Notes under the pieces: model-generated
Seen by the model: only the letters and a program-made list of their open reading frames with translations
Told to the model about the DNA's origin: nothing
The model's database searches: none
Position numbers and translations under genes: made by a program
DNA from: Nitrososphaerota archaeon
GTDB taxonomy: Archaea > Thermoproteota > Nitrososphaeria > Conexivisphaerales > UBA164
Assembly (NCBI GenBank): GCA_029786595.1
Contig: JAFLXO010000004.1
Coordinates: forward strand, 9,817-73,816
Length of the DNA stretch: 64,000 nt
Reading direction: 5' to 3'
In this document: positions 15,461 through 37,213 of the stretch, in pieces
Position numbering within the stretch: position 1 is the first letter of the stretch
Layout: the number at the start of each line of letters is the position of its first letter

Positions 15461-15479
15461 ATAGAAGCCCCGGGCGAGG
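15461..15479 (+). repeat. attL-like direct repeat (duplicated tRNA-Thr 3' fragment)
   Basis: atagaagccccgggcgagg here versus atagtagccccgggcgagg at 33304-33322, with one mismatch. Confidence 0.75.
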
Positions 15480-15562
15480 ATTCCTATATAAACATTAAAT
15501 CACGCCATTATGAATATATGGTATTATAGCGTCTAGCATTAATCTGTCTTTTATTATATGAC

Positions 15563-15697: not shown

Positions 15698-15720
15698 GAT
15701 GCCGTAAGGGAGATGATGAA

Positions 15721-15975: not shown

Positions 15976-15993
15976 AGGGGCACCCCTTTGGGG

Positions 15994-17822: not shown

Positions 17823-18425
17823 CTAACAATCAAAATAAAGGTCCGAAAAACTGATAGTTTCTGCAAATTTAATTATGCTATCTTTTGGATCAATATTTAC
17901 GAAATTTTTTTTAATTAATTTCTCTAATGATTCATCGAATATTAATGCTGTAAAGTTGCCTATCAATTGTTTGTATTTATTACCGAAGGCCTTAGTTATT
18001 ACGTAACACCTTTTACGGAGACCTGTCTTAATGACACGCTCATCCTTTTTTTCTATTTTCAAACTTTTATTCCTTTGGTATATTTTACCAAATAACTTAT
18101 TCAGTTGCATATCAATATCTTTAGAATCTGCATCGAACATAAAGATTAGATTTGAGTTAGCATGGGTTATTTGTAACAATATGCCCGGGAATAATTTAAA
18201 AAGTCTGCCTTTTCCGTGTTCCTCTTTCAATAGTATATGATATGGAGAACTTGGCGAAAGGAAGGAACTTATAACATTAGTTTCAATGGCTTTTTCGGAA
18301 TTCCTTTTTCTCTCTTCTTCAAAATTGAACTTCTTATAGACGCAGCCAGTTGTTTTTTCTTTTTTGATAACTGTTTCTACAAATAATGAGTCGTTTGCTC
18401 CTTCCAATATAACTATTTGTTTCAC
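17823..18425 (-). CDS. TOPRIM-like small partner protein (DUF4435/DUF4276/RloB-like) of the upstream ABC ATPase
   Basis: The N-terminus MKQIVILEGANDSLFVE fits the hhhhEGxxD TOPRIM-type glutamate motif, and FMFDADS further on fits DxD. Its start at 18425 directly abuts the ATPase stop at 18426. The family assignment is from motif memory only. Confidence 0.45.
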   Translation of the reverse strand: MKQIVILEGANDSLFVETVIKKEKTTGCVYKKFNFEEERKRNSEKAIETNVISSFLSPSSPYHILLKEEHGKGRLFKLFPGILLQITHANSNLIFMFDADSKDIDMQLNKLFGKIYQRNKSLKIEKKDERVIKTGLRKRCYVITKAFGNKYKQLIGNFTALIFDESLEKLIKKNFVNIDPKDSIIKFAETISFSDLYFDC

Positions 18426-19718
18426 TCAAATTCCCCTCAGGTCCAAACCGACATCGTTAAGACTTTCTTTAGCTTGAGCTATGTTCATCTCTTCCGAGAT
18501 TATTGTGCCGGCCTTTTCTTTTTTATTTAATCTAATTATATTTGTATTCCGTTTTAGGAATTCTATTTCTTCTTTGGAAAGGGTCGTGGGATTAACAACG
18601 CTATCAATTAAGTCAAAACTATGTGTTGTAATGAAAATTTGATGATGCCCCCTTTTAGACAATCTGATCAAGTACTTGAGAAATTCAATTATGTAACCTG
18701 GGTGCATGTGCACCTCTGGCTCCTCAAGCAGGATTACAGACCTTGGAGGAGAACCCGCAAGGGTCGCAAGTAGCGATATCAGGACCCTAAAGCCATCACC
18801 CATAAGGTTTAACGGAATGATTCCGTCTCCCTCTAAGACGATCGAATTAAAGGAAAACCGTTCGAGACCTTGAATTAAATCCGCTTCTTTAATAATTTTC
18901 TGGACCTCATTTGCAACGCTTTCATTTTGTTCCGAGCTTTTCAAGCTCTCAATAGGGTCCTTTATGTAGATCAATCTTTCTCGGTGTCTTTTATAGCTTG
19001 TTTCTTTTCGACGATTCGCACTAAACCCATAAAGCATATATCTGGGAATGATGTCCGAGGTGTGCCTGACTAGATCTTTTACATCTGGGGTTTCTTTGGC
19101 AATTAAACTAAGTATTTCCCGTATTAATTCATCATACACATTCGAATACGGATGGCCTTTAAAATAACCACTATTCCTTCCGTCATACCATCTGAGTGTC
19201 ATTTTAGCGGCATTTTGAATTTTTTCCCTATTGGATTCAACGTCCAATACCTTATTTATATAGCTATCAATTGTTCTATCCTTTAATATTTTTTTAATAG
19301 TTTTTTCCAATTTAGTTGTTTTGTTTAGATCATGTAGTAAAAACAGAAATATAGACCGAGGTAAATGCTGTAATCCATCTTGGAATTCCTTTTTAAATAT
19401 TACTAAGAACTCTTCCAAGTCAATGTGATAAAGTTCCAATTTCTCTTCCTTCGATCTATTATAATGTATTTGTATTATACTGCTGCTGCCCTTGTGATTA
19501 ATTAAATTTGATGGATTACTCTGATAATTTGGTGGAAGTTCATGACTGTCTTGCATTAAATTCAATGCTTCTAATACCGAAGTTTTCCCCGTATTGTTCC
19601 TTCCAACCAATATATTCAATTTGCGCGGATGTATTTCAATAAAATCTATTGCTTTAAAATATTCAATAGTTAATTTATTAATCATCAATCCCCTTTCATG
19701 TAATTGATAAAGTTTCAA
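18426..19718 (-). CDS. ABC/SMC-like ATPase (AAA_15/AAA_21-type, OLD/AriA/AbiL-ATPase-like)
   Basis: Walker A GRNNTGKTSVLEAL, signature-like LMGDGFRVLISLL, Walker B SVILLEEPEVHMHP, and H-loop IFITTHS. Confidence 0.8.
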   Translation of the reverse strand: MKLYQLHERGLMINKLTIEYFKAIDFIEIHPRKLNILVGRNNTGKTSVLEALNLMQDSHELPPNYQSNPSNLINHKGSSSIIQIHYNRSKEEKLELYHIDLEEFLVIFKKEFQDGLQHLPRSIFLFLLHDLNKTTKLEKTIKKILKDRTIDSYINKVLDVESNREKIQNAAKMTLRWYDGRNSGYFKGHPYSNVYDELIREILSLIAKETPDVKDLVRHTSDIIPRYMLYGFSANRRKETSYKRHRERLIYIKDPIESLKSSEQNESVANEVQKIIKEADLIQGLERFSFNSIVLEGDGIIPLNLMGDGFRVLISLLATLAGSPPRSVILLEEPEVHMHPGYIIEFLKYLIRLSKRGHHQIFITTHSFDLIDSVVNPTTLSKEEIEFLKRNTNIIRLNKKEKAGTIISEEMNIAQAKESLNDVGLDLRGI

Positions 19719-20752
19719 CTATTTAAGAATATTGTTTAAGGTAATAGAGTAGACCGCAGGTCTTACCCTGCGGCCCCTCGTCGAACGTAGCGGGCGGATT
19801 TCCCGCACTACGCTCACCAATGATGTTCATAGTGCCACTGTGTAGAGAACGGGTTTAATCCGTATATTGAGGACTGAAATGCCAGCACCTATTATACTCC
19901 TGTATTTTCCTGTATGCTTCTTCTGATGTCACCTTTTGTACATTCTACAGAGGGACAGGTCAACAAGAAGAGAATCTGCATCAGCAAATTGTGAACAGGG
20001 ATGCGATTGTGGGCTTTTTGGAAAAAGCAACCAGCGGCACCGTTTTTCGAAAGCAGGGCAGGAAAATGAAAATTTAATTCATCTATGGTGACTACGCAAT
20101 GGGAAAGGGGGTTACTGCAAAGGAGGCCGGGAAAATGATGAATGACAAGATATTGAAAGTGCTGACCACGTTCGCGAGAAAGGAGCTCGACATAGCCGAC
20201 TGATTTTATGAAATGCTCACCAACAAAAAGATATAAGCAGGGTTGTGCATAAGAAGGGTATGTCGAAGCATTATACTGCAAATAGTAAATCCGGCCGATG
20301 GCATTATGGGCTGCGGCTTTCCGCGTGCCCAAATGGCCTGCTTTAATGGAATTGTTACTTACGTGTCAGTGCTCCTATAAACGATTTCAGGTCTTGGATC
20401 CTTATTTCTATGTCATCCTTTAACGACGGATAAAGGGCCTGCTGGCTTCTAAACTCTTTAATACCCCCTTCCAGCTATGGCGACAAGGATTTTAACCAGG
20501 ACTTCCTCATTGCCATCGGTATATATTCGTTCAATTGCTTTGCATAGGCTAAAACTGGATGGCAAATATGTACCTGTTAAGGAGTTGTACAGCTTCCCCA
20601 ACTTCTCCCTAAAGAAGATTGTTTCGGGAAATAAGTCTGGTCTCTCTACCAGGTTATATATGCCCTCTTCAGAAAATTTTGCCGCTGGTCTAACCCGTTT
20701 TCCGTTGGTGTAGAACTGCCCTCAAACAACAGGAAAAGAAACTCCCTTTTAT

Positions 20753-23014
20753 TTATGTAAAACAAATGCAGTCCCCTTGGTTAAAAATTTTTACCATCTC
20801 ATCCCCCTGCCTGTCAGCATATCCCTTGCCGAGCACGTGGAAAGCGAGAATTCTTACTAAATTGCCTATACCGCTCTTGAATTCCATGTTGAATGCCGTT
20901 GGCGTACCCATGGAATAAACGCCGGGTCGGGGTGCCTCCGGCTTGGTCTCCGGTTTGTTGTCTGGCTGCGATGGCGCCTCCGGCTTGCTTTCCGGTTGCT
21001 GTGTAATCGGTCCTTTCTTGTTGCCCCTGCGTCTTAACGCAAGCGCGGCTCCAGTGATTACGGCCGCCATCACTATCACGATTATGGCTATGTTGGTATA
21101 GTTGTAAGTGTAGTTAACGGTCAGGGAGGCCTGCACGGAATACCCTGTCGCGTCCGTCGCGGTTACGTTCAGCACGTTCTGGCCCATGTTCGCAAGCTGG
21201 TAGGTATAGGTTGCAGACGTGGTGGTGGCCACCTCCTGCCCGTTAAGATACCATGTGTAGGTGTAGGGGGATGTCCCGCCGCTCATCGCCGCATCCAGCA
21301 CAACGATATCGTTGGAATAGAGGAAGCTGCTGGAGCCGAGGGTGTATGTGCCGTTCATGGAGGGGTCCGGGTTCACGGTCAAGGAGATAGTGTTTGAGTT
21401 GACCTGGTAACCAAGGGAATCAGTGAGCCTTGCGGTAATCTGGTAACTGCCAGGGTTGGCAAGGGTGGTGGTGTCCCCGCTCATTAGGTTGCCATCGAGG
21501 TAGTAGGCTATGCTGTAGGGCGGGGTGCCCTGTGAAGTGCTTGCGGAGACCGTTAGCGTCTGCCCTGTATCGTACGCATTGCTCGGCACGGATATGGAGA
21601 TAGTAGGATCAGGATTAACGGTGAAGTATAAGATATTTGAATCAACCTTGTACCCGGTGGAATCGGTAAGTTGCGCATAGACTTGATGAGTTCCGGAGCC
21701 TGATGCCGTAGGTATGCTATTCCCAACGGGCACCCCATCAAGGTAATATGTGATAGTGTATGGGGGAGAGCCCATGGATGTGCTTATGGAAATATCAAGT
21801 GCCTGTCCTGCATCATAAGTTATAACTGGCATCGTAATGGAGATCGTAGGACCAGCGTTGATTGTAAGAAACACGAAGTTTGACAATGTCGCGGTATCTC
21901 CAATTGAATCAACCACCTCGAAAGTAGGGGTATATGTGCCGGCGCCGAGATTGTTGACAGTAAATGCAGAATTATAGTTGGTAGAAGAAGTGGAGGAGCT
22001 AAAAACCATTGTGCCATTCACGTAGATGTAGTAATAATATGGTGGGACGCCTCCGCTAACCACAGAATTAAAAGAATCGCTCAGCGGCATTCCCGCATCG
22101 CCAGTTTCAGAATAAGAATTGATAGTTACGTTCATATAAATAGGCCCGGTTATGAACATATTTGTATCCGCATATTCAGTGGCCCCATTGGACGAATATG
22201 GGTATAGCTGGCTGGTAAGGGATATCGGGTTTGAAGTCGACGTGGAGAAAAGGACCTGCTGGGTATTTGTATTATATTCATCAACCCACAGCCAGGCCGA
22301 AGTGAACTGGAATCCCTGCTCTGAATAGGTGACCTGCTGCTCACTCCCATAATATGGGTTGGTGTGGTACCATTCTGTCATCAGTCCGGTGAAGAAGCCG
22401 TTGGAATTCGAGGTGCTGTACCCGTTCTGGCCCTGGAAGTATGTGGCTCCCTCAGAGCTGAAGGTCTCCGAGGCACTGGCGCCCGTGTTCCAGTCATAGG
22501 CATACATTTTCACCACGCCGGTGGAGTTGTCAAAGTATAAATTGAGGAGCACTAAATCACCGCTGTTGACCGGTCCGGAGAAGCTATCCATGCCGCTTCC
22601 TCCAGCTGTAGGGAAAATTGAGGTGCCACTGGGGTTGAATACTTCATAGTTCATGTCGAAGCCGGCAGTTGGGCCATCCCAATCGTATGATAAGCCAACC
22701 TGATACCAGTAACCGGTATTTGACAACCCGTTTAAAAGATACGCCGGTCCATAGCCGGAACCACTCACTTGAGCTATCGCAGTTACGTTAAACGCGAGCG
22801 ATGTAAAATCCTGGGTAAAGGATTCACCCAACTGTTCATCCCAGTTGGCTGCTGGCGAATTGGCACCCTGTAATCCGGCAACTTCTGCTGATGGCAGCAG
22901 CCCGGCCGGATGAACATTAACAGCGCCGGCCTGGGCATTGGCGTGCGCAAAGGACGGGCTTGCGGCCAGCGGAAGGGTGAGCAACAGTAGGATAAGCCAG
23001 ATCTTATTTAGCAT
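20753..23014 (-). CDS. Secreted, membrane-anchored surface protein: possible acid-protease-like (thermopsin/eqolisin-like) N-domain followed by PKD-like repeats
   Basis: Signal peptide MLNKIWLILLLLTLPLAASPSFAHANA. Four PKD-like modules with GxxPYxYxW/Y motifs (GGVPPYYYYIY, GSPPYTITYY, GTPPYSIAYY, GGTSPYTYTWY). TM segment IAIIVIVMAAVITGAALAL followed by RRRGNKK, then a Pro/Glu/Lys-rich tail. The N-domain call is weak (GYWYQVGL, LMTEWY). Confidence 0.7.
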   Translation of the reverse strand: MLNKIWLILLLLTLPLAASPSFAHANAQAGAVNVHPAGLLPSAEVAGLQGANSPAANWDEQLGESFTQDFTSLAFNVTAIAQVSGSGYGPAYLLNGLSNTGYWYQVGLSYDWDGPTAGFDMNYEVFNPSGTSIFPTAGGSGMDSFSGPVNSGDLVLLNLYFDNSTGVVKMYAYDWNTGASASETFSSEGATYFQGQNGYSTSNSNGFFTGLMTEWYHTNPYYGSEQQVTYSEQGFQFTSAWLWVDEYNTNTQQVLFSTSTSNPISLTSQLYPYSSNGATEYADTNMFITGPIYMNVTINSYSETGDAGMPLSDSFNSVVSGGVPPYYYYIYVNGTMVFSSSTSSTNYNSAFTVNNLGAGTYTPTFEVVDSIGDTATLSNFVFLTINAGPTISITMPVITYDAGQALDISISTSMGSPPYTITYYLDGVPVGNSIPTASGSGTHQVYAQLTDSTGYKVDSNILYFTVNPDPTISISVPSNAYDTGQTLTVSASTSQGTPPYSIAYYLDGNLMSGDTTTLANPGSYQITARLTDSLGYQVNSNTISLTVNPDPSMNGTYTLGSSSFLYSNDIVVLDAAMSGGTSPYTYTWYLNGQEVATTTSATYTYQLANMGQNVLNVTATDATGYSVQASLTVNYTYNYTNIAIIVIVMAAVITGAALALRRRGNKKGPITQQPESKPEAPSQPDNKPETKPEAPRPGVYSMGTPTAFNMEFKSGIGNLVRILAFHVLGKGYADRQGDEMVKIFNQGDCICFT
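21110..22141 (-). repeat. Four tandem PKD/Ig-like coding repeats (about 80-95 aa each) inside the surface protein gene
   Basis: Residues ~292-635. Repeats 2 and 3 align closely (PTISITMPVITYDAGQALDISISTSMGSPPYTITYYLDG versus PTISISVPSNAYDTGQTLTVSASTSQGTPPYSIAYYLDG). Confidence 0.6.
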
Positions 23015-23163
23015 TCCTACATAATATCTTGAATATTATTTAACCATTTAGCAGTCTTTTACATATATTTTAACTACGCACTGTAGTTCGTACAAAACTT
23101 GGGCCAACCTCTGCGAGTCTAATTATTTTTATGCTTAGTTTGCTGATCTTGGCCTGACAAAGA

Positions 23164-23922
23164 TTATCTATCAAGCTGCGGGCTTTGGCCTGATTCTTTA
23201 ATTATAACCTGCTTTCCTTTTTCCGTCAATTCATAATGTTTCTTGAATAAGCCTACTTTCCTTAGATAACCTCTAGCTATTAAATCCTTCAAAATGGAAA
23301 TATTATCAGGATTTATTGTCTTTCTATCTAGCCAACCACTATCCGCTTCTATTAACATATCATATTCTGAAAGTTTAGAAATATCAATACTTGAATTCAA
23401 GATTTTTTGTAGGTTTTTAATTTCGTTTATTAATGGTACCCTTTCATTCGCGGTTCCAACCATAGAAAGACGTTTCTTAGCATAGTTCAGCTTCTTAGTT
23501 ATCATCTCTACATAGTTGGCATTGCCATGATCAGGAGCTAATGGAACGGTTTGTAATTTATCAGTTTCTGATATTAATGTGGCCTGCCGAACCCGATCTT
23601 CTACTTCAGAGATCAGGTCGGCTTCACTTACTTTGGAGTTACCCTCCCACATCGCTACAATTAGATGGGATGCAACCGTTTCAGGCATAACTATAGGATA
23701 TGACCCAAGCTTGGTATTGAACGCCTCTCTCAGAATATTATTTAGACTTGTATGTGATATTTCACATTTAGCGGTGGCCCAAAATCCGTTATTGGTGCTT
23801 GCTAAATAATCCCTTAGCCCACCGCTCACAAAATCGAGACCAATAGAGCGGGGAAAGGGAAGTTCACCCAGCTGGATTTTAACATCTACATCATTTGAGG
23901 ACCGAACATCTGAGGTAAGCAT
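23164..23922 (-). CDS. Hypothetical protein, unknown N-domain plus C-terminal winged helix
   Basis: The C-terminus ISILKDLIARGYLRKVGLFKKHYELTEKGKQVI is MarR-like wHTH. The N-terminal 190 aa are unrecognised. AT-rich gene next to the RM gene. Confidence 0.5.
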   Translation of the reverse strand: MLTSDVRSSNDVDVKIQLGELPFPRSIGLDFVSGGLRDYLASTNNGFWATAKCEISHTSLNNILREAFNTKLGSYPIVMPETVASHLIVAMWEGNSKVSEADLISEVEDRVRQATLISETDKLQTVPLAPDHGNANYVEMITKKLNYAKKRLSMVGTANERVPLINEIKNLQKILNSSIDISKLSEYDMLIEADSGWLDRKTINPDNISILKDLIARGYLRKVGLFKKHYELTEKGKQVIIKESGQSPQLDR

Positions 23923-24187
23923 TGTTCCTCATTTTCAATTGACTATGGGATTTATATACGTATTGACTAAAAGGGTCTTCATTTCAGGCGCGTGCCATTG
24001 AAGGCGATAGGCTGTCCGTATTTGCCGAAAGGCGTATCAAGATGGCAATAAGCCAGATAGTCAAAAGAGAACTCGATCTTGACTCTCATAATGCTTTAAA
24101 ATTCTAGGTATGATAGAATGGTTTATGATAATAAAAAACCGTCAGTAATGGCTTGGCCGCCAGCGGCTCTTTTCATATCAGCTTTAT

Positions 24188-24294
24188 GTTCGTTTTACCA
24201 TTTTCGCATGAAATAAAGATGCCATAAGAAATACGAACAGGTTCGCTTTACTATTTTTACATGAAATATGACGCCTAATTAGAAGTGCGAACAG
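24188..24294. repeat. Two head-to-tail imperfect repeats (53 + 54 bp)
   Basis: Unit 1 is gttcgttttaccattttcgcatgaaataaagatgccataagaaatacgaacag. Unit 2 is gttcgctttactatttttacatgaaatatgacgcctaattagaagtgcgaacag. Each unit starts with gttcg and ends with cgaacag, and the junction forms the palindrome cgaacaggttcg. Confidence 0.6.
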
Positions 24295-24646
24295 TAAATC
24301 AGGGCATTTAGGCATACCCCCCGATTGCCCTTCTTAAGCGCGGATAAACCATGCGCGCCAAGCGTGGGCCAAGGGTAAAGCCGTTCATATTTCTGAAAGA
24401 AAAGCGAACTTTTTTAAGACACATCCCCGGTCTTTTTTGACAGCTCGTTTCATGTGCCAAAATATCGGGGATATTGCACCAATTTAGCCGGATTTAGGGG
24501 TGTTTTAGGATAATTAAGGGCTATTGGCGTGGAATTAGATGTTCCTAAGGATGAGCCAGAACAGCTACCTGATCATGATGCGAATGCCTCCTGCTGTCCG
24601 CTACCTGTTGAAACAGGTGTCGTCACATTGAATGTTGCTCAGAAAG

Positions 24647-27028
24647 TTATTTGAATTGGAGAGATAGTTGTTTTAGTTTATCTTTAATTATTGCCCTCTC
24701 TTTATTTACCGCCTTAACCTCTGACGTTATCTGTGCTATTTCTTTCTCGGTCAGTTTAGGCACCTTGATTGTCATGTATTCATCGTCCGATATTGCTGGT
24801 AAAATTGTTCCTGAGGACTTCCATCGTACCTGATCTAACGTTGTCCTGAGCCTTAATATTACAAATAGAGCTTCTGCGGTCATAGGTGGTCTTGGTTTCA
24901 ATACCACAAAGCCAGATGAGACTATTGCGCCTTCGTATTCTTCTGGTATAATGGCTACATTCTCTTCGCTGTCCTTTACTTTTGCAGCTACTATGTCCCA
25001 TTTATTTACAAGCAACTTGGCTCTTGAAGGAGCTTCTTCTCCGAGCAAATCATAATGGCTTGTTATATCTCCAAGATTGCTCTCTATGTTGCTATACTGA
25101 ATATACTTTATAGCCTTTTTGGGTTCTTTCTTCGGATTGACTATTATTTTTGACTGAACTGCTATGTCCTTTATCTCACAACTTTCTTTCTTAAGTTCAA
25201 AAACGTATTTTGCATGGTAATACGTTGCATCTATTCTATCCTTTACCATATTTTTTCCTATGATGAAACAAGATGGTGTATTGTTCAAAATTTCCATAAC
25301 ATCTGTTTTGCCTTTTAGATTCTCAAAGAACTTGCTCGATTTGTACTCCTTATAGACACTGAGAATTTTAGGTAAGTCATTTTGATCTATTGGCTTTGCC
25401 TCTTTTGTTTTAGTCTCATAACCAACATAGTCGGCTACTGCCATAAATATTGGTTGCTGTTCTTCGTCTTCAGCAATCTTTTTCTTAATGAATAATAAGC
25501 TTGTTTTGCTGTTAGCACCAGACGCCTTGAACGCTCTGTCTGGAAGACTTATTACCGCCTTTATTACTGCCCTGCTTTTTATGAAGTCTCTTACGTAAGT
25601 TAAACGTTCATTGTTTAGTATGCCGTCTGGTAATAGAATAGCAAGCTCGCCACCAGCAGGTTTTAGGAACTTTAAGCACTTCTCAACGAACAGTATCTCT
25701 CGTAGTTGCTCTTTCATTACCTTTTTATCCACTTTACCTAAGTCAAATTGTTCTAAGATTTTACCATGATCCTTATTCCCAAAAGGCGGGTTTGTTATTA
25801 CTAAGTCAAATTTACCTTCAGTTATTTCGTTTATTCCCTCAAGACCGTTTGCTTTGTAAATTTTGCCATGTCCATCTCCATGCAATACCATATTCATTTT
25901 TGCTACCATGACCAACCTTTCGTTAATGTCAATACCGAATATTTGCTCCTTAGAAAGTCTTTCGAGAAGTTCTTTCTGTTTGCTCTCTGGTTGTCTTGCT
26001 ATCTTTTCCTGTATTGCCTTAAAAACCTCTATCAAAAATCCGCCAGAGCCGCAAGCAGGGTCTAATACGAGATATGGATCATTGCGGTTTGATACGGCAG
26101 AGTTAATCTCTGGATCTGCAAATTGAACAGCAAATCTGACTATTGTTCTTGGCGTAAAGAATTGTCCAAGTCCGCCTGTAAATGTTTTACCGAGAAATAT
26201 CTCAAAAGCACGACCTTTTACATCTATATTAGTTCTTATTAGTGTATATCTTTGAAGCAATTCTACGAGTTTTTCTATGCTTTCGTCTTGCAAATTTATG
26301 ACTTCATTGCCTGTGAATATGTCCTTGTTGTTGTCTCTTGCTTCTTTGAATAGGTAATTTCTGACGTATTTAGCACCACCATTAGCTTTTATGCTTTCTA
26401 TTGAGAAGGGGTTTGATTTGCCGTCTAATGCTAACTTCTCAAAATACATCTTACAAAATAAGATTTTACTTATTTCATCAAAAGCATCTGCACCTGTAAG
26501 ACCATCAACATCTCTTATAACGTCTTCGCATTTTAATAAAATTGATGAGAATTCTTTTATTCCTTCAAAAACGAGCAATGTCTTTCTTGCCTCTTCAAGT
26601 CTTTCTTCTGAAATAGTTTCTACAGCTTTGCCTATTTGTCTTGTTAAATTCTCTTTTGATAAAAATGTTGGTAATACAGATACTGGTTTATCCCAGATTA
26701 CTTTCTCTGTCTGCGTCTCGTAGACTTTAATTGTTAAGCCATTTGATAGAACCGAGTAAGGTGCCTTTAAGAGAAGTCCATAGGATATAATTTGCCTTTC
26801 GTAAAGGTTTAAATTTTCAGTTGGGTTTTTGCCATCAACAACAATTACAGAAACCCCATTTATGTTTATTACAATATCTGGATAAACGTATTTGCCTCTA
26901 CCTATTTCTATTGACTTTTGATGTTCTATTTCCCCTTTAACCTTTTCGCTATATCCGAGTTTTTCAAGGATGGGAATTATAATCTTTATGATAACATCCG
27001 TCTCTGAATTATCTTCAAAATTGGTCAT
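24647..27028 (-). CDS. Single-chain restriction-modification enzyme candidate (Type IIG/IIB-like): PD-(D/E)xK nuclease + N6-adenine methyltransferase + one TRD
   Basis: The N-terminal HSDR_N-like fold has YPDIVI...VIVVDGK...RQ (PD...DxK...Q). MTase motif I is VLDPACGSGGFLIE and motif IV is TNPPFGNKD. The C-terminal ~200 aa resemble a Type I S-subunit target-recognition domain ending in a coiled coil. Confidence 0.8.
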   Translation of the reverse strand: MTNFEDNSETDVIIKIIIPILEKLGYSEKVKGEIEHQKSIEIGRGKYVYPDIVININGVSVIVVDGKNPTENLNLYERQIISYGLLLKAPYSVLSNGLTIKVYETQTEKVIWDKPVSVLPTFLSKENLTRQIGKAVETISEERLEEARKTLLVFEGIKEFSSILLKCEDVIRDVDGLTGADAFDEISKILFCKMYFEKLALDGKSNPFSIESIKANGGAKYVRNYLFKEARDNNKDIFTGNEVINLQDESIEKLVELLQRYTLIRTNIDVKGRAFEIFLGKTFTGGLGQFFTPRTIVRFAVQFADPEINSAVSNRNDPYLVLDPACGSGGFLIEVFKAIQEKIARQPESKQKELLERLSKEQIFGIDINERLVMVAKMNMVLHGDGHGKIYKANGLEGINEITEGKFDLVITNPPFGNKDHGKILEQFDLGKVDKKVMKEQLREILFVEKCLKFLKPAGGELAILLPDGILNNERLTYVRDFIKSRAVIKAVISLPDRAFKASGANSKTSLLFIKKKIAEDEEQQPIFMAVADYVGYETKTKEAKPIDQNDLPKILSVYKEYKSSKFFENLKGKTDVMEILNNTPSCFIIGKNMVKDRIDATYYHAKYVFELKKESCEIKDIAVQSKIIVNPKKEPKKAIKYIQYSNIESNLGDITSHYDLLGEEAPSRAKLLVNKWDIVAAKVKDSEENVAIIPEEYEGAIVSSGFVVLKPRPPMTAEALFVILRLRTTLDQVRWKSSGTILPAISDDEYMTIKVPKLTEKEIAQITSEVKAVNKERAIIKDKLKQLSLQFK

Positions 27029-27372
27029 AAAATATCACCAATATTGCGTAAACTAAACGCTAACAGTTGCTGAACTAGCAAGCAAAGAAATAGCCGGCTG
27101 AATCTTGTATAGTGTCTAAGCCATAATACAATTTTAGTATCCATATTATTGAGATACAAGCTTGTATGCTTTACTATAAATCCATTCATGCCTTTACCCG
27201 CTTTAGCGATGTAATAAAGTGCTATTAAATTATGGGTTTTACCATCACCCAATGAAGTTTCAAGCTTGATTATAGGCGTAGAATCTGGGGCTTCGCCACT
27301 AAGCCTTCCAAACACTTCTTTCAACTGTTCTTTGCAGTCCCCCCCGAAGACTCTATCTACCCAATTGCCCAT
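27025..27372 (-). pseudogene. 5' fragment of a DUF499-like P-loop ATPase gene
   Basis: PIIKLETSLGDGKTHNLIALYYIAKAG resembles the N-terminal Walker A region of large (~1000 aa) DUF499 ATPases. Only about 70 plausible residues are followed by low-complexity sequence. The stop overlaps the RM start (ATGA). Confidence 0.4.
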
Positions 27373-27549
27373 ATAATCCGTAATTGCTTATTTGATTAAT
27401 AAGTATTTGCTGCAGGTGTTTCCATCTTTGCATCTATATTATGAGGGTCGGAGAGGTGGTTTTACCTGCGCGTTTGCGTAAGGGTTTGTCCATGCTCAGT
27501 CATCGCCCTCAGCGCGTAGTCCTCGTAACGCGCTGTCTATCTATATTAT

Positions 27550-28029
27550 ATGAAAGTAATCGTGAACCTGAAATTAAAGGTCGACACAACCTATTACGCA
27601 GGCAGGAGCATCTACAACAACCTCACGGGGGGCGTCTTTGAAGAGCCGGGGTGCCTTACCGAGCTTGAGAGCATAGTATGGCTGTCAAGGAACAGCCTGG
27701 AGCTGGATTTAAGAATACACCAATTAAAAATTCCCGACATAATGAAGGTGTATATAAGCCGGGAAGACCTCAGTCACTCTAACAAATTGACGGTGCTATA
27801 TCCCGAAATCGGCGTAAAACCGCTTGGCCCCCTGCCGGATAATATTATCGAATACATAGAGGCGCCACAGAACCCTACCCCTAAATCGAATCAGGTTATG
27901 AACGACTGGCGATTGCGAAAGTGGTTCGAAACCAAGGACCCGACCTATCTTGGCCTGCCGGCCCCAATCGATTATAATACAATGTTTAACATAAAAGAGG
28001 TAGACTGGTCGCACTTTAAGGGGATCTAA
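27550..28029 (+). CDS. Hypothetical protein
   Basis: 159-aa ORF in the GC-richer backbone, followed by a GC hairpin. No motif recognised. Confidence 0.45.
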   Translation: MKVIVNLKLKVDTTYYAGRSIYNNLTGGVFEEPGCLTELESIVWLSRNSLELDLRIHQLKIPDIMKVYISREDLSHSNKLTVLYPEIGVKPLGPLPDNIIEYIEAPQNPTPKSNQVMNDWRLRKWFETKDPTYLGLPAPIDYNTMFNIKEVDWSHFKGI

Positions 28030-28199
28030 ACAGTCAACCGGTAGGGGCGCACCCCTTAGAGTGGGGTATTTTAATCAATTAGATCATGATGTTTGGGAAG
28101 GAAAGAAAGCTAAAGAACGGCAGCTATTAACACGACAAAGTCAGCATGCCGCTAAAGTCCATACCGTCTATCTTTTCTACCTGCATATTATATAGATCG

Positions 28200-28570
28200 C
28201 CTGAGCGTTGCCAGAAATGGCAACGTTTTGTTGCCTTTTTGCGGTTTTTGCGTTACCATTTGCTATTTTTAGCCCTCCTGATGGGTTGGTTGTGGGGGGG
28301 CGTTTCATACCTGAGCATAAACAAATATGTTGACAATTTGTTAACTTTCAGCCATTTTTCCATCAGCATTCCTGTATTTCCTACCCCTCCTGTGCGGGGG
28401 CGGTTCGTAGCATACATCCTAAGCGGCACCATTTGTGGTGTCATTTTGACACCATTTTGAGGTTTTTATGGCACCATTTGCCAGTTTTAGCTCTTTCCCA
28501 AGATGGGTTTAGCGGGGGCGCTTCATAGATATTTTTTATCCCAAAAAAATCGCAAAAAAAGACGCTGGGT
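28200..28570. promoter_or_regulatory. Iteron-like repeat cluster, putative replication origin of the element
   Basis: Three copies of GGGGGCG(N)TTC(A/G)TA at 28294-28316, 28394-28419 and 28512-28533. Four to five copies of (G/T)(C/T)ACCATTT(T)G at 28253, 28433, 28449 and 28469. Palindrome gttgccagaaatggcaac at 28207-28224. An A/T tract at 28531-28560. The region lies upstream of the helicase operon. Confidence 0.5.
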
Positions 28571-28671
28571 GTTTAGTTTGGAAAATTTTGACTTTGCGCA
28601 TATCTATATAGTATGACCAAATACTGCGGTTCATTTGGCGACGCGGCATTATCCGCGGACGGAGTGGGAAA

Positions 28672-29214
28672 ATGAACGAGGAAGGCAGGGCCCCCCTGCA
28701 AGGGGGCCACAACGGAGAGGTAGCATCAACAAATAAAAGCACACATCTTTTCGAGCGCACCATCGATGATGGAACATACAAACTTCAGGTTTGCGTGAAT
28801 GCGTTGGGCCGTATTGTAGTTTCCATTAATGAAATTTCAATCACAGTCTTAGCTGAAGATGGCCTTGAAGCGGTATGGCATGAACTAATACTGGCTGGCG
28901 CCTTTGGCCCAGCGGTTCCAGAGCACGATCGCTTTCGAATCCTTAACAACATTTCATTTATGCATCGCGACGCGGTCACATGGCTTGCTGAGGCACAAAA
29001 ACGCACTCAAGCCAAGCATAACGATTCAAGGGTTCAAACGCTGGCCGACCTGTTCAAGGAGGAGAGCGAAAAAATGATAGGCAAGCCGGGGTCAGGAGCT
29101 GGACTAAACTTCAAAACAGAGTCAAAAATGGCAATATTTACAGAGGGTAGAAATTCCGCAGGAACCGCCGGAACCGCCGGAACCTGCGCGATGAAACAGG
29201 CAAGGGATAAATAA
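28672..29214 (+). CDS. Hypothetical protein (first gene of the helicase operon)
   Basis: Its stop overlaps the helicase ATG (TAATG). The C-terminus SAGTAGTAGT is encoded by the GGAACCGCC repeat. Confidence 0.45.
   Translation: MNEEGRAPLQGGHNGEVASTNKSTHLFERTIDDGTYKLQVCVNALGRIVVSINEISITVLAEDGLEAVWHELILAGAFGPAVPEHDRFRILNNISFMHRDAVTWLAEAQKRTQAKHNDSRVQTLADLFKEESEKMIGKPGSGAGLNFKTESKMAIFTEGRNSAGTAGTAGTCAMKQARDK
29143..29183. repeat. Left arm of perfect 41-bp inverted repeat
   Basis: gagggtagaaattccgcaggaaccgccggaaccgccggaac is the exact reverse complement of 30598-30638. Confidence 0.9.
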
Positions 29215-31007
29215 TGGTCGAAAATCAAACCGCCGGAACCTTGACGCCAACCATGGATACCCTACCGAACGAGGTCGCTGATGCTCTCCTTGTCACCATG
29301 CACGTCCTTACCCTTCGTGATACCAAGGAGATGCTTGTCTACCGTGATGGAGTATATGAAGAGTACGGGGAGCAGGTCATAGAGCAGCTGGTTTTGAATA
29401 CGTTCAAGCACGCCCGCATAGCACAGAAGCTCAACCGGAATTACATGAACGAAGTGCTGGCCCACGTGCGCTGGGGCTCATATACGGACAGGAAGGAATT
29501 TGACAATGACGAGAATATAATCCATCTTGCGAACGGGCTTCTGGACATCAGGACAGGGAAGGTGTCGCCCGAAACACCGGATTACTATTCAAGGATCAAA
29601 CTTCCAGTGTTTTACGATCCTGAGGCGAAGGCGCCGGCATTCGAGAAGGCGCTGGCTGAGATACTGCCGGATGAGAAGGCAAGGCTGGACGTTATGGAGG
29701 AATTTGCGGCCGTCCTCTGGCGCACGGCGAAGCTCCAGAAAGCCTTCCTATGGGTTGGGAATGGCCGCAACGGGAAGTCAACGCTCTTATACGTTCTCCA
29801 GTCATTGATAGGGGCGAAGAACTTTTCAAGCATAGCCATACAGGACTTGCAGGTTAGTCGTTTCAAGCCGGCCGAGCTTGATGGGAAACTTGCCAATATC
29901 TATAGCGATATATCGGCGACAGAAATCCATGCCACCGGGATTATCAAGTCCATAATCAGTGGTGATGCGATAACAGTTGAAAAGAAGAACCGCGACCCCT
30001 TCACATTCCATCCGTTCTCAAAGCTGTTCTACTCAGCGAACCAAGTGCCGGAGGTGCTGGACTCATCGGATGCATGGTTCCGCAGGTGGAAGATCACCGA
30101 ATTCACGCAGGAGTTCGAAAAGGACAAGTGCGATCCCGACCTTCCGGCCAAGCTAACGAGCCCGCAGGAATTATCAGGCATCCTTAACCTTGTCATTGCC
30201 ACCCTGAAAGACCTGATAGCGAGGGGGAAGTTTGCCCATGAAGATGATATCGATCTTATAAGAGAGAGTTGGCTGCTAAAAGCTGACCACCTGCGCAGGT
30301 TCATTGATGCCGAACTTGAGCTTGAGCCGGGTGTTGACACGTCAAGGCAGAAGGTGTATGACGCCTATACGAAATGGTGTTATGAGAACGGCGTGGTTAA
30401 CGTCTACAGCCAGCAAAAGTTCAACAGTGAGTTCATAAAAAAGATACCGGTCAGCCAGTCTTCCCCAAAACCGGGAGGCAAAGGTACCAATTCGGTGTAT
30501 AGCTGGAGGGGGGTGAAGTTCAAGGAAGGTTCCGGCGGTTCCGGCGGTTCGACAAAAGTCGATGCCGGACAAAAAACCATCAATGAAACGGAAAATAGTT
30601 CCGGCGGTTCCGGCGGTTCCTGCGGAATTTCTACCCTCCCAAAAAATGGCCATTTTGACGATCTTGTCAGTGAACTGACCAAACGGGACGGCAAGATTTA
30701 TGTCAAGTGTAAGGATCATAGGGTTGACAGCGACGGTCACGAGCGTTGGTTCTGCAAGGACGACGGGGAGTGGGAGATGCACCTGCAAAGACAGCATGGC
30801 TTAGAGACGAAGGCGGAAGCTGTGCTGGACATATTCAGGAAGCTCTGCGGCCCGGAGAATAAGGAGGTCACGGTGCAGGAGGTCATGGCCGAGCTGAAGA
30901 AGGCAGGCATAGAGGAGCCCGAGGGGGCCACGCTGATTGCGTCGCTGCAGAATAACGGGCAGATATATGAAAGGAGCCCCGGCAGGTTCAGCCTTACCAT
31001 ATCATGA
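29214..31007 (+). CDS. D5/P4-type SF3 replicative helicase (phage/plasmid primase P4-family C-terminal domain) with C-terminal winged-helix
   Basis: D5_N-like region (IIHLANGLLDIRTG...PETPDYY), Walker A VGNGRNGKST, Walker-B-like KLANIYSD, then WFRRWKIT. A Gly/Ser linker and a Cys/His-rich segment follow, then a wH-like tail. Confidence 0.85.
   Translation: MVENQTAGTLTPTMDTLPNEVADALLVTMHVLTLRDTKEMLVYRDGVYEEYGEQVIEQLVLNTFKHARIAQKLNRNYMNEVLAHVRWGSYTDRKEFDNDENIIHLANGLLDIRTGKVSPETPDYYSRIKLPVFYDPEAKAPAFEKALAEILPDEKARLDVMEEFAAVLWRTAKLQKAFLWVGNGRNGKSTLLYVLQSLIGAKNFSSIAIQDLQVSRFKPAELDGKLANIYSDISATEIHATGIIKSIISGDAITVEKKNRDPFTFHPFSKLFYSANQVPEVLDSSDAWFRRWKITEFTQEFEKDKCDPDLPAKLTSPQELSGILNLVIATLKDLIARGKFAHEDDIDLIRESWLLKADHLRRFIDAELELEPGVDTSRQKVYDAYTKWCYENGVVNVYSQQKFNSEFIKKIPVSQSSPKPGGKGTNSVYSWRGVKFKEGSGGSGGSTKVDAGQKTINETENSSGGSGGSCGISTLPKNGHFDDLVSELTKRDGKIYVKCKDHRVDSDGHERWFCKDDGEWEMHLQRQHGLETKAEAVLDIFRKLCGPENKEVTVQEVMAELKKAGIEEPEGATLIASLQNNGQIYERSPGRFSLTIS
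30598..30638. repeat. Right arm of perfect 41-bp inverted repeat
   Basis: gttccggcggttccggcggttcctgcggaatttctaccctc. Weaker similarity continues for about 22 bp beyond both arms. Confidence 0.9.
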
Positions 31008-31057
31008 AGAGATAGATGGAATATGAAACAAGCGATAGTTAAACTTAAGGCGCCGGC

Positions 31058-31324
31058 GTGGGAAAATCATATCCGGAACGCCGGATATCAGCACGGATTC
31101 AGGAGAATTATCCCAAAGGTGGTCAAGCCATGACCAGTTATCAGCTCCGAATCGTAAAGAGGGAATGGGATCCGGCGAGGAAGGCCAAGGCCTCTCATTC
31201 ATTAATCACAAAGCCGCTCTCTGAGGCGCAGGCCAGGCAGCTGGTTGAATTGTTTAAGTCATCAGAGTTGTTCAAGTCCGCAGCGCTTATTGAAGCAGAA
31301 GTCAAGGAGGGCCGGATGGCATGA
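31058..31324 (+). CDS. Hypothetical small protein
   Basis: ORF only. The likelier start is the internal MTSYQLRIVK. Confidence 0.35.
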   Translation: MGKSYPERRISARIQENYPKGGQAMTSYQLRIVKREWDPARKAKASHSLITKPLSEAQARQLVELFKSSELFKSAALIEAEVKEGRMA

Positions 31325-31983
31325 TCGCCGAACACTTATTACGTCAACGGGACACAATTCCCCAAGGCATCAGGGCAAAGACGCAATACCTTGTATTCAG
31401 GCACCGGTTCAATAATCCAGGGGACAGCCTTGAAGACGTGGCAAAGGCGCTTGGCCTGAGCTACTGGACGGTGGCCAAGTCATGGTCAAGGCTCAGGCGT
31501 TCAAGGAACCTGGCCAGGCTGTGCCCGGTATGCTTCCATGAAACGCTCTACAATTCCCTGTGCCAGAGCTGCGGGGCCGACTTCCGGGAAGATGAAACAG
31601 GGGGCGTTGAAATGGCTGACATGGACCAGCACAGCCCGGTCTATCGGATCCAGCCTAACGGCGGCCTTGGGGGAGAGCCCCAATACAGCGGCCTAAGGCT
31701 CCAGAACCGGCCCACATATATCCGCCATTTAGTGGAACAGCAGGGAGGAGACGAAGGGAGGATCCAGGAAATACTTGAGCTGATATGGGAGGAGCTCAAG
31801 GCAACCATGCCTAGGGATGACGTGGGGGAGCTGGCCGCCAGGACCGCAAGGAAGGAGTATTACCGGATGAAGCGGGATTACCCGGACCTGATGAGCAAGA
31901 AGGGGTTCAAGGAAGCCGTAGCCGGGAAGGTCGTAAGGGAGCTGAGGACCATCTATAGAATAGGCAATGGAGGTGAGCGGTAG
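31321..31983 (+). CDS. Putative regulator: HTH plus zinc ribbon
   Basis: LEDVAKALGLSYWTVAKSWSRLRR is HTH-like, followed by CPVCFHETLYNSLCQSCG (CxxC...CxxC). Confidence 0.5.
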   Translation: MIAEHLLRQRDTIPQGIRAKTQYLVFRHRFNNPGDSLEDVAKALGLSYWTVAKSWSRLRRSRNLARLCPVCFHETLYNSLCQSCGADFREDETGGVEMADMDQHSPVYRIQPNGGLGGEPQYSGLRLQNRPTYIRHLVEQQGGDEGRIQEILELIWEELKATMPRDDVGELAARTARKEYYRMKRDYPDLMSKKGFKEAVAGKVVRELRTIYRIGNGGER

Positions 31984-32066
31984 GATGAACGACAGCGATA
32001 AGGAGGCCGAATACGTCAAGGTGCCCAAGTCAAAGATAGTTGAAATGATAGAGGAAGTAAGGCGGC

Positions 32067-33305
32067 TCAGGGAACTGTCTCGTGACCAGAAGCAAGAAGG
32101 GCGTTAAGCTGCTCTTCAAGCTTCGCCAGCCTTTCCTCATACTCGTTCCTTATTCTTGTTTCAGTCTCGAGCGCCTTCCCGCTTGCCGGGTTGAGCCATG
32201 GCCGGGCGATCTTCATGTATTCCTTCCTGTAGTGCTCGGGATCGTTCCACGGGGACTTGTCATACTTCAGCTTGTCTATCGAGTGGCCCAGAAAGAAGTT
32301 GGCAGCCGTCATGTCGGCCCCAACGTGTTTTGCCATCGTTATCAGGGTATCCCTGCATTCGTGAGAATGAAATGCATACTGGATATGGGCTCCCTTAAAC
32401 TTTTCGAGCTTGACCGACGGATCCCTTATGTTTATCTTGGCACGCCTGCCAGCCATGAGGAATATCGAGGTCACCTGCTTGGCGCTCATGGGATGGCCGA
32501 ACTTGTCAATGAAGATGGGGTCCGAATGAGGGAGCTCTCCCGGGTTGCCTGGATAAACCTTCAGGTCCCTTCCCTTCAGGTATTCAGCTATGGTCTCAAC
32601 GGCATCAATGTCCAGGAAGGTATAGTACCTGTAATCCGACTTTGGCCTTACCAGGTCAATCCTTATCGGGCACGCAGTTTGACATTTTGACACATCATTT
32701 AACACGCCCGAATTTAATAGCTGGGGATATCCAACTAAGTTGAAGACGTCCGTGAGCGTAGAGGCGTCCATGCCCGACTGAAGCATTGCCAGGATAACGG
32801 CCCTGTCCCTCACCGACACCTTCCCGTAATGAAGAGCCGTGTTGATATATTCAAGGAAATCATGGGCCGTGATTTCTCGCCTTATCGTATGGTGGTTCCC
32901 GTTCCTTACAACTGGCCGGACGTGGGGGAGCTCCACGAAGTTATGAAGATAGAATGACCTTATGGTGGCCATCTCCCTCCTGATTGTCTCCTTGTTCTCG
33001 GATGGATATTCCTGGCAGTATTCAAGCAGCCTGCTAACATGATCGACCAGGACCCTGTTATTCCCGTTCAAACACTCATCGATCAGCCTGTCCGGGTCCG
33101 CCTCGAAGCCCCTTGATTTCAGCCATCTCACGTAGCGGCCCAGTGCGTAGACGTTGCCCTTCCTGTAGCCGCCGCTCCTGAGAGCATTAAGCCATTTCCT
33201 AACGCTCTCCCTTTCAATCAGTGGTTCTAGGTCGTCATAGACCTTTGAAATTCCGCCCGGCCCCCTGCTCATGCTATTAAAAAGGTGAGGTTCGAACTTA
33301 TCCAT
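32067..33305 (-). CDS. int: Tyrosine recombinase / integrase
   Basis: C-terminal catalytic pattern: AFHSHECRDTLIT (HxxR), FLGHS, then KLKYDKS (Tyr). The start codon lies inside the att core, and the gene abuts tRNA-Thr. Confidence 0.85.
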   Translation of the reverse strand: MDKFEPHLFNSMSRGPGGISKVYDDLEPLIERESVRKWLNALRSGGYRKGNVYALGRYVRWLKSRGFEADPDRLIDECLNGNNRVLVDHVSRLLEYCQEYPSENKETIRREMATIRSFYLHNFVELPHVRPVVRNGNHHTIRREITAHDFLEYINTALHYGKVSVRDRAVILAMLQSGMDASTLTDVFNLVGYPQLLNSGVLNDVSKCQTACPIRIDLVRPKSDYRYYTFLDIDAVETIAEYLKGRDLKVYPGNPGELPHSDPIFIDKFGHPMSAKQVTSIFLMAGRRAKINIRDPSVKLEKFKGAHIQYAFHSHECRDTLITMAKHVGADMTAANFFLGHSIDKLKYDKSPWNDPEHYRKEYMKIARPWLNPASGKALETETRIRNEYEERLAKLEEQLNALLASGHETVP

Positions 33306-33322
33306 AGTAGCCCCGGGCGAGG
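33304..33322 (+). repeat. attR-like direct repeat overlapping the tRNA-Thr 3' end
   Basis: atagtagccccgggcgagg. Positions 33309-33322 are the discriminator, the acceptor 3' strand and the T-stem 3' strand plus one T-loop base of the tRNA. Confidence 0.75.
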
Positions 33323-33382
33323 TTTGAACTCGCGGCCCACAGCTTACAAGGCTATTGCTCTACCAGGCTGAGCTACCGGGGC
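33309..33382 (-). tRNA. tRNA-Thr(UGU): tRNA-Thr (anticodon UGU)
   Basis: Hand-folded cloverleaf of the reverse complement: GCCCCGG-TA-GCTC-AGCCTGGTA-GAGC-A-ATAGC-CTTGTAA-GCTGT-GGGCC-GCGAG-TTCAAAC-CTCGC-CCGGGGC-T. All stems pair. It is 74 nt with no encoded CCA. Confidence 0.9.
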
Positions 33383-36979: not shown

Positions 36980-37138
36980 ACTACAGAATCAAAAACCTCC
37001 TTTCCCACACATGATATTAAAACCTTATACCTAATTGAAACCTTATAAGCATAAACGAGCTCATTAATGTTGGCTGCTCATGGTCAAATCGTTCTCTGTT
37101 TATAGTCGGAATATAATCTGCCCTATGTCGGAAGAAGG

Positions 37139-37213
37139 CGGGCCCGGTGGGATTTGAACCCACGGCTTCCGGCTTCGCAGGCCAGCGCCCTATCCATCCT
37201 AGGCCACGGGCCC
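37139..37213 (-). tRNA. tRNA-Arg(GCG): tRNA-Arg (anticodon GCG)
   Basis: Reverse complement folds as GGGCCCG-TG-GCCT-AGGATGGATA-GGGC-G-CTGGC-CTGCGAA-GCCGG-AAGCC-GTGGG-TTCAAAT-CCCAC-CGGGCCC-G. It is 75 nt with no encoded CCA. Confidence 0.85.

Follow-up and report, generated by a model that had tools for sequence, protein, structure and literature searches.

The 64,000 nucleotides of DNA analysed here (the window, whose coordinates are used throughout) are archaeal chromosome, in which an integrated element of about 17.8 kb carries a block of repeats directly upstream of a superfamily 3 (SF3) helicase operon. We found that this block is made up of three tandem, diverged units homologous to an intergenic module that stands, in virus-like contigs, beside the gene of a helix-turn-helix (HTH) protein. 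An earlier note on this DNA, made from the sequence alone, had taken the block for the origin of the element, used by the adjacent helicase; this is probably not its role. The explanation that we favour, with about as much confidence as doubt, is that the block comprises three orphaned operator-type arrays that would serve as a trans-responsive control site, or as a titration site, in the regulatory slot of the helicase operon. (The nearest relatives of the helicase belong to metagenome-assembled genomes of Nitrososphaerota; related loci and contigs carry L numbers.)

The repeat block is built of three tandem units

The block sits in a 640-bp gap with a 159-aa open reading frame (ORF) on one side and a 180-aa ORF on the other. 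The features of the gap and its borders are as follows.

27550-28029, plus strand: 159-aa ORF adjoining the arrays
28039-28118, plus strand: hairpin segment (ACCCCTTAGAGTGGGGT, then a T-rich run), 79% identical to the sister element L003
28130-28187, minus strand: remnant of the 5' end of an HTH regulator gene, 19 codons (MQVEKIDGMDFSGMLTLSC) and then a stop
28175-28310, plus strand: unit U1, nearest relatives L010 (76% identity) and L012 (75%)
28309-28412, plus strand: unit U2, of L001 type, with a 10-nt deletion and a GTYRAC half-site in common with L001
28411-28530, plus strand: unit U3, with its G-box at 28512
28531-28562: A/T tract (ATTTTTTATCCCAAAAAAATCGCAAAAAAAG) after the last unit, 79% A+T over 33 nt
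About 28600-28615, plus strand: TATA-like box ATCTATATAGTATG, kept in L003, the likely promoter of the operon for the 180-aa protein and the helicase
28672-31007, plus strand: helicase operon, with the 180-aa ORF at 28672-29214 and the SF3 helicase at 29214-31007

All of the motifs described in the earlier note are borne out. The G-run motif GSGGGGGCGNTTCRTA occurs in exactly three copies with no mismatch (at 28294, 28394 and 28512) and nowhere else in the 64 kb, and when up to two mismatches are allowed there are four matches against 0.37 expected, which places the three copies beyond chance. The sequences said to precede the G-runs are present as CCTCCTG (at 28273 and 28385) and as GATGGGTT, whose sole two copies in the window are at 28280 and 28502, and 4 of the 12 copies of YACCATTT in the window fall in the block. 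The perfect palindrome (GTTGCCAGAAATGGCAAC, 28207-28224) is joined by a second (TGGTGTCATTTTGACACCA, 28436-28454), where chance would give about 0.3 perfect palindromes with 7-nt arms per 0.5 kb. The claim that the region holds no credible coding sequence also stands; the ORFs across the block (28146-28460 on the plus strand and 28253-28444 on the minus strand) are mechanical only, and a gene caller applied to a second assembly of the same locus (L009) made no call in the block. The A/T tract is present but modest: 916 33-nt windows in the 64 kb are equally or more A+T-rich (it ranks in the top 1.4%), and it lies at the edge of the array rather than between opposed repeats, so that it is not an unwinding element of the type found in Staphylococcus aureus pathogenicity islands (SaPIs).

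These motifs are parts of three full-length, diverged tandem units, with pairwise identities of 59-68% and alignment z-scores of 7-15 against shuffled sequences. A profile search, with the profile built from the same three units, returned exactly three contiguous copies of about 105-135 bp (28175-28310, 28309-28412 and 28411-28530). A search of 28525-28672 for a fourth, inverted unit found the shared TATA-like box alone; the TATA-like 14-mers CATATTATATAGAT, at 28184-28197, and ATCTATATAGTATG, at 28602-28615, are inverted copies of each other that bracket the whole block of arrays.

Unit U1 opens with the TATA-like box CATATTATATAGAT (28184-28197) followed by CCTGAGC, and continues with half-sites GTTGCCA at 28207, an inverted copy at 28218-28224, GTTGCC at 28230 and GTTACCA at 28252. 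In U2 the sites are partly decayed (ATAAACA, GTTGAC in inverted orientation, GTTAAC and ATCAGCA). Those of U3 are GGCACCA at 28425, inverted GACACCA at 28436-28442, GACACCA at 28448 and GGCACCA at 28470. The copies of (g/t)(c/t)accattt(t)g listed in the earlier note, together with its palindrome, are these half-sites.

We also considered that the block might be a structured non-coding RNA or an array of small-RNA genes, given that TATA-like boxes flank it and that a run of T follows U3. Rfam has no match in the block (the sole hit, with E = 0.47, lies outside it), the folding energy of both strands is like that of shuffled sequences (z = -1.3 and -1.6), and what is conserved is a set of helically phased DNA half-sites, not paired stems. 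We regard this explanation as hardly credible. Two further readings were set aside on the architecture of the repeats, which fits neither: CTGA and TGATG strings as boxes of C/D-box small RNAs, and the repeats as arm sites of the integrase, for which the 5-kb distance from the attachment (att) site is also unsuitable.

The units are homologous to an intergenic module of virus-like contigs

The unit has homologues, each present in single copy, between genes in L001/L002, L008, L010/L011, L012, L013, L014, L015 and L018. Three of these (L001/L002, L008 and L018) are virus-like contigs of 38-47 kb, and L010-L015 are short contigs; they are assigned to viruses by gene order and size, plus a weak match to a large terminase. 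The order of the module is constant, namely a 63-65-aa gene, the array and the gene of a 184-213-aa HTH protein with an N-terminal HTH_23 domain, and within the virus replication block the order is helicase, a 72-aa ORF, an Hjc-like resolvase, the 65-aa gene, the array and the HTH gene. In the virus loci the palindrome lies 7-10 bp from a TATA-like box that abuts the HTH start codon. (The 14-mer version of the TATA-like box likewise abuts the HTH start codon in viruses.)

U1 aligns with L010 and L012 with scores of 126 and 121, compared with 58-78 against the other units of the window, and U2 scores 84 against L001; each unit of the window is as close to a virus unit as to the adjoining window units, or closer. 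Note that the virus contigs come from a narrow run of ENA analysis accessions (ERZ27236928 to ERZ27237490), which includes the twin assembly of this locus.

Comparison with the virus loci also accounts for the G-runs, which the earlier note had read as iterons. The G-run is the reverse complement of the Ala-Pro-Ala codons (...I/T-A-P-A...) near the end of the 65-aa gene (CGCCCCCGC, opposite strand), and GAGGAGGGCTAA encodes, on the opposite strand, the final residues and stop codon of the 65-aa protein. Relics of this gene tail end every unit in the window: the 3' end of U1 is CCCTCCTG...GGGGGGGCG, which the minus strand reads as NAPPQPTHQEG-stop, and the corresponding readings are APAQEG-stop in U2 and APAKPILGKS-stop in U3. 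All three junctions are of one type, a G-box and then NTTCRTA, which takes in the opening codons of the HTH gene; of all parts the G-box is the best preserved. This shared junction type suggests that one unit was amplified and that its cores were later replaced or co-evolved.

At the other end of the block, the HTH gene remnant (28130-28187) is 62% identical to the L013 protein over 16 aa by tblastn, a short match with a weak E-value, and the 64-kb window holds no complete homologue of either the HTH gene or the 65-aa gene.

The 63-65-aa protein (for example L001 10109-10306 and L018 10001-10195) combines the invariant core WGASEISLKVELTRDERSVLAR.RKVDDVKM with an N-terminus that differs by type, and its gene lies inside the hypervariable island described below. 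The G-box DNA is invariant at the 3' end of the gene and is kept in the window, where it is non-coding; it may thus act as a DNA site by itself, perhaps recognised by the 65-aa protein.

The origin recognition box (ORB) type of archaeal origin, served by Orc1/Cdc6, has dyads, each with a G-run at a distance of a few bases, arrayed around an AT-rich region beside an orc1/cdc6 gene. An ORB-like reading of the G-strings was rejected, the G-run here being 70-80 bp from the palindrome and the reverse complement of Ala-Pro-Ala codons; an Orc1/Cdc6 domain was found in none of the ten neighbouring ORFs scanned. Two exact matches to the G-box core in IMG/VR lie in GC-rich coding DNA of unrelated contigs and were dismissed as chance.

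Half-site sequence co-varies with the HTH protein

In every unit half-sites of 6-7 nt follow one layout, with a half-site at 0, an inverted copy at 11-12 and direct copies at 23 and 45 bp, separated by T-rich spacers (ATTTT, TTTTTGCG and others). This phased spacing, together with the T-rich spacers, argues that all of the sites lie on one face of the helix. The half-site sequences are listed here by locus.

L013: GGCTACA
L012 and L018: GTTGCA
L001, L008, L014 and L015: GTCAACA
L010: GNTNGCA set
Window, unit U1: GTTGCC(A)
Window, unit U2: decayed GTYRAC set
Window, unit U3: GRCACCA

The three units of the window thus have three different site sequences, with four phased sites within each. Half-site identity is 0.81 within units and 0.51 between units (0 of 10,000 label permutations reach this difference), and at the four central positions it is 80% within and 35% between. 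For U1 and U3 the identity within the unit is 0.86 and 0.90, respectively.

The HTH protein is almost invariant from residue 55 on, its variability being concentrated in the HTH domain, whose helices are predicted at residues 10-18, 23-30 and 34-41. Four array types have the recognition helices SYQTVWLWAHRK, SDTEVWLWAHKK, NKSTVWRWGRKA and SGKTVGAWARKT, one helix per type, in a comparison that comprises about five independent virus-type units. Moreover, the recombinant L014, which joins an L001-type N-terminus to an L013-type C-terminus, has an array of the L001 type, matching its N-terminus. When L018 is compared with L001, DNA identity is 95-100% over about 14 kb, the sole exception, at 61-78%, being a stretch that comprises the 65-aa gene, the array and the N-terminal part of the HTH gene. 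Judged from these alignments, that stretch is a specificity island, set in genomes with an identical helicase and 9-mer type (see below).

Profile searches of 1.84 billion representative proteins returned only a small family for the HTH protein. All of the full-length members scanned have an Xre/HTH_3/HTH_23 N-terminus and an unannotated helical C-terminal domain, which by its predicted domains is the build of a phage-type or virus transcription regulator. Domain, structure and profile comparisons did not connect the HTH protein with any known family of initiators. The AlphaFold model of the protein is mediocre (predicted local distance difference test score of 69), and a Foldseek search of the PDB gave nothing below E = 0.07; cyclin/TFB-like resemblances of the model were weak and were disregarded. 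The idea that the array is a coding extension of the HTH ORF was dropped, the upstream in-frame ATG of L012 and L013 being out of frame or stopped in L010 and L001.

These features also bear on the idea that the HTH protein is a viral origin-binding initiator, with the arrays as its iterons; the window would then hold three origins served in trans, and any of three virus types could replicate the element in satellite-like fashion. In keeping with this, the array lies within the virus replication gene block, each virus has one array of phased sites with T-tracts, and the specificity island resembles the pairing of origin and initiator in phages of the lambda type. What speaks against it is the likeness of the HTH family to Xre-type regulators, with its lack of any link to known initiators, the want of a convincing unwinding element, and the better suitability for an origin role of the helicase's own winged-helix domain and the 9-mers that co-vary with it. 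We consider an origin served in trans to be quite improbable.

The arrays do not follow the adjacent helicase

If, as the earlier note had proposed, the block were an origin that the winged-helix domain of the SF3 helicase, or else the 180-aa protein, recognises, then it should accompany them. The block is missing from L003, L004 and L007, in which the helicase is about 80% identical; lack of conservation in related elements, which the note itself had named as evidence to the contrary, is thus what was found as far as the helicase is concerned. L001 and L018 have helicase DNA that is 98-100% identical and arrays that are different, so that the specificity of the array follows the HTH protein and not the helicase. 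L003 has a homologue of the 180-aa protein but no arrays, and two more distant relatives of the helicase (L016 and L017, 40-43% identity) have neither arrays nor the 9-mer inverted repeats. IMG/VR scans guided by the helicase, by a helicase alignment and by an HTH alignment found nothing, and a genome scan and a metagenome scan with the helicase yielded one short extra locus each.

The sister element L003 shows what occupies the position of the block when it is absent. It is 82% identical in DNA to the window from 28747 through the integrase gene and the tRNA, aligns again over 28039-28118, and encodes an integrase with 92% aa identity beside the same tRNA. In place of the block it has a two-gene cassette of about 0.95 kb (L003 105-1050, corresponding to 28119-28590 of the window), which consists of a 231-aa gene on the minus strand and an 85-aa gene that overlaps the promoter of the helicase operon. 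The 85-aa ORF reads by eye as ribbon-helix-helix-like and has no Pfam hit. In L004 the slot holds a divergent ORF with a stretch that, again by eye, resembles a winged HTH. The breakpoints of the block specific to the window are marked on the left by the 28039-28118 segment and lie on the right at about 28590. The slot before the helicase operon is a site at which cassettes can be exchanged.

What speaks for an origin of the element's own is the position of a non-coding repeat cluster and A/T tract directly upstream of the helicase operon, and the fact that winged-helix SF3 helicases bind iterons in SaPIs (PMC9371898). The origin of a SaPI, however, lies immediately downstream of rep and consists of 6-12 identical iterons of 5-6 nt opposed around an AT-rich centre (PMC9371898). 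The element resembles SaPIs and related phage-inducible chromosomal islands in being integrated, in having an integrase and a winged-helix helicase, and in having short repeats near the helicase gene; it differs in the upstream position and heterotypic make-up of the block, in an A/T tract at a single edge, and in arrays that vary independently of the helicase. One initiator would be expected to have iterons of one sequence, whereas the site sequence differs among the three units, and the G-runs are relics of a gene tail. In pRN1 of Sulfolobus, the archaeal SF3 replicon that has been studied best, the region upstream of the rep operon is a promoter, and the origin is a 100-nt stem-loop downstream of the gene (PMC4234260). 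Like the element, pRN1 has an archaeal replication operon with an SF3 helicase and a short upstream region, which there is a promoter, and the operon encodes a transcriptional repressor (PMC4234260); unlike the element, it encodes its own repressor, and an equivalent of its downstream stem-loop was sought here only by an inverted-repeat search. The part of the earlier interpretation that holds is that non-coding, phased sites of protein-binding type lie directly upstream of the helicase operon; that they form the origin of that helicase is very improbable.

A set of 9-mers accompanies the helicase

A second set of repeats lies at the helicase gene itself. In the window the direct 9-mer CCGCCGGAA occurs at 29165 and 29174, with a variant, CCGCAGGAA, at 29156, all directly 5' of the helicase ATG, and a further copy is found at 29230 within the first helicase codons. 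Together with inverted clusters downstream, they belong to an inverted repeat of 59 nt, 92% complementary, with arms 1.4 kb apart.

29125-29183, plus strand: left arm of the inverted repeat, 59 nt, just 5' of the helicase ATG (region 29125-29238)
30527-30550 and 30598-30628, minus strand: two inverted 9-mer clusters in the helicase linker codons (region 30527-30656)
30598-30656, minus strand: right arm of the inverted repeat, in the helicase linker codons

The set is present throughout the helicase clade (the window, L001, L003, L004, L007, L008 and L018). Its layout comprises two or three direct 9-mers before the helicase ATG, one in the first codons, and one or two inverted clusters (two except in L004) located 1.3-1.4 kb downstream in the linker codons; in the window, L003 and L004 the clusters are embedded in an inverted repeat of 59-63 nt that is 80-92% complementary. 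The 9-mer is CCGCCGGAA in the window, L003 and L007, CCGGCGGAA in L001, L008 and L018, and CTGGCGGAA in L004, and nearly all copies within one element agree. L007 and L008 are 96.8% identical; of the 72 positions at which they differ, 9 are the central C/G of the 9-mers, every copy of which is affected. Furthermore, the 9-mer type is matched by one helicase residue beside the winged-helix domain, which is S, Y or Q, in a comparison of three groups only.

Concerted change at dispersed copies, in both orientations and in two reading frames, points to the 9-mers as candidate binding sites of a single protein, putatively iterons specific to the helicase, or as the product of ongoing gene conversion. 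From their sequence and distribution, the 9-mers are a better candidate than the arrays for an origin linked to the helicase. By the SaPI definition the 9-mer clusters, being identical and opposed, come closer than the block does, but 1.3-1.4 kb separates them, and the DNA in which they sit is coding.

The block lies in a mosaic integrated element

The element as a whole extends between two att copies. The copy at 15466-15482, AGCCCCGGGCGAGGWTT, repeats 33309-33325, which is the 17-nt 3' end of tRNA-Thr(TGT). Its other features are listed below.

15466-33325: integrated element, about 17.8 kb, with att copies at both ends
18426-19718, minus strand: AAA_15/AriA-like ATPase, defence-type cargo
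20753-23014, minus strand: gene of a 753-aa Ig-domain protein
24647-27028, minus strand: 793-aa N6-methyltransferase with an HSDR_N-like N-terminus, defence-type cargo
27025-27372, minus strand: 115-aa ORF whose match to an HmaC-type AAA+ ATPase is limited to the N-terminal part of the ATPase, likely a gene fragment
32067-33305, minus strand: tyrosine-integrase gene, abutting tRNA-Thr(TGT)
33309-33382, minus strand: tRNA-Thr(TGT), the integration site of the element

The SF3 helicase has D5_N, DUF5906 and Pox_D5 domains. IS110-like pieces are also found near the repeat block. The virus-like contig L018 encodes proteins (L018 19931-20194 and 1-639) with 79-80% identity to the 159-aa ORF and to the first 206 residues of the Ig-domain protein; the element is thus a mosaic in which several parts derive from viruses. 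At 19744-19817 on the minus strand, directly upstream of the AriA-like gene, Rfam matches a group II intron catalytic domain (44.5 bits against a gathering score of 40), and a tRNA-Arg with anticodon GCG lies at 37137-37213 on the minus strand, about 4 kb outside the element.

The element fits a class of cryptic integrated elements known from Thaumarchaeota (PMC6563490). The catalogue of those elements lists helicases and integrases, and cis-acting sites are not described in it (PMC6563490).

Discussion

In the explanation that we favour, 28175-28530 is made up of three tandem copies of an intergenic control module from a group of virus-like elements of Nitrososphaerota. In each module four half-sites on one face of the helix would be bound cooperatively by the HTH protein, as an operator-type array beside a TATA-like box. 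With the cognate gene truncated, the arrays of the element would be occupied only in trans, by regulators of resident or infecting related viruses; that the HTH gene is reduced to 19 codons, with no full homologue in the 64 kb, argues for this. Either the expression or activity of the helicase operon would be coupled to related viruses, or the arrays would titrate the regulators of those viruses. In this scheme the homology, the layout of the sites, their co-variation with the recognition helix, their independence of the helicase and the truncation of the HTH gene are observed; binding by the HTH protein, the sign of the regulation and any continuing use of the arrays are inferred.

The virus loci have the features of a regulator-operator module: palindromic and repeated sites stand by a regulator gene and promoter elements, the sequence of the sites co-varies with the recognition helix, and a hypervariable island interrupts near-identical genomes. 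The by-eye reading of regulator-type genes in the same slot of L003 and L004 also agrees with a regulatory role. Several points weigh on the other side. The block in the window is an orphan copy, with no cognate regulator gene in the same element. Because the TATA-like box of the viruses adjoins the start codon of the HTH gene, its promoter could run in either direction and the regulation could have either sign. The arrays of the window point away from the promoter of the helicase, and their palindromes adjoin the truncated HTH gene rather than the helicase operon. An origin and its initiator would give the same specificity-island pattern as a regulator and its operator. The co-variation of the array with the HTH N-terminus could be due in part to simple physical linkage, and the independent virus-type units available for comparison are few. 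Finally, other truncated genes lie nearby (the HmaC-like fragment at 27025-27372 and the IS110-like pieces) and the U2 sites have decayed, so that the block could be an unused relic.

Such a relic, that is, the debris of recombination between a virus-derived element and related viruses, kept because it is recent and without a present function, is the main rival to operator-type control, though on balance we doubt it. It would account for an HTH gene cut to 19 codons, for gene-end relics in every unit, for the other gene fragments nearby, for the decay of the outer half-sites of U2, for the mosaic make-up of an element that has the 159-aa ORF and the Ig-like N-terminus in common with virus L018, and for sister elements that manage without the block. 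Decay sits less easily with the fact that U1 and U3 each retain four consistent half-sites despite an overall unit identity of 59-68%. The uniform junctions and the best-kept G-box would be unexpected in neutral debris of such age, and three adjoining specificities are hard to obtain from decay alone.

Among known systems, operator-type arrays of this kind are most readily compared with the immunity regions of temperate lambdoid phages, which consist of a repressor and operator sets and of which heteroimmune variants exist. Both have an HTH regulator with short, phased, partly palindromic sites beside its own gene, a site sequence and recognition helix that change together, and a sharply bounded hypervariable island. 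The present system differs in its archaeal hosts, its TATA-type promoter, its co-directional flanking genes and its arrangement of one inverted pair and two direct half-sites, and the window differs further in holding three heterotypic tandem sets without a regulator gene. Iteron incompatibility and titration loci without origin function, such as P1 incA, illustrate how sites can sequester a protein encoded elsewhere. The block would likewise be a site array for a protein encoded elsewhere; P1 incA-type loci, however, have one sequence for one initiator of the same replicon, and the block has three specificities, for proteins whose genes the element lacks. The late promoters of satellite P4 respond to Ogr of phage P2, which is to say that satellite promoters are activated by a regulator of the helper phage. 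By analogy, this helicase- and integrase-bearing element would hold sites for a regulator that another virus supplies, with the differences that the hosts are archaeal and that three specificities adjoin one another.

We can envisage a broader reading, which we think unlikely, in which the 17.8-kb element is the archaeal counterpart of a phage satellite or defence island that displays the operator sets of three virus immunity types without their regulators, and in which the 9-mers are the specificity code of the helicase's own origin. The helicase (at about 80% identity) and other genes of the element are in common with local viruses, and its cargo is of defence type. Were this so, the element could sense the type of an infecting virus and switch on the helicase operon or replication; alternatively, the arrays could be a decoy that absorbs the master regulator of the virus.

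What is new here, on the reading of operator-type arrays, is an archaeal integrated element with a putative regulator-operator module of immunity type in orphaned, heterotypic and threefold form. To our knowledge, almost nothing is known of the regulation or replication of the mobile elements and viruses of Nitrososphaerota (Thaumarchaeota). The analysis corrects an assignment of an origin that was attractive but is probably wrong, and redirects the search for the origin to the 9-mers. The locus offers a concrete protein-DNA recognition system, in which one regulator family goes with six or more half-site variants in a fixed geometry, and of which an integrated element carries several heterotypic copies without the regulator. 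If the arrays are in use, they would point to cross-talk of an integrated element with the host's viruses, of a kind documented so far mainly for bacterial satellites.

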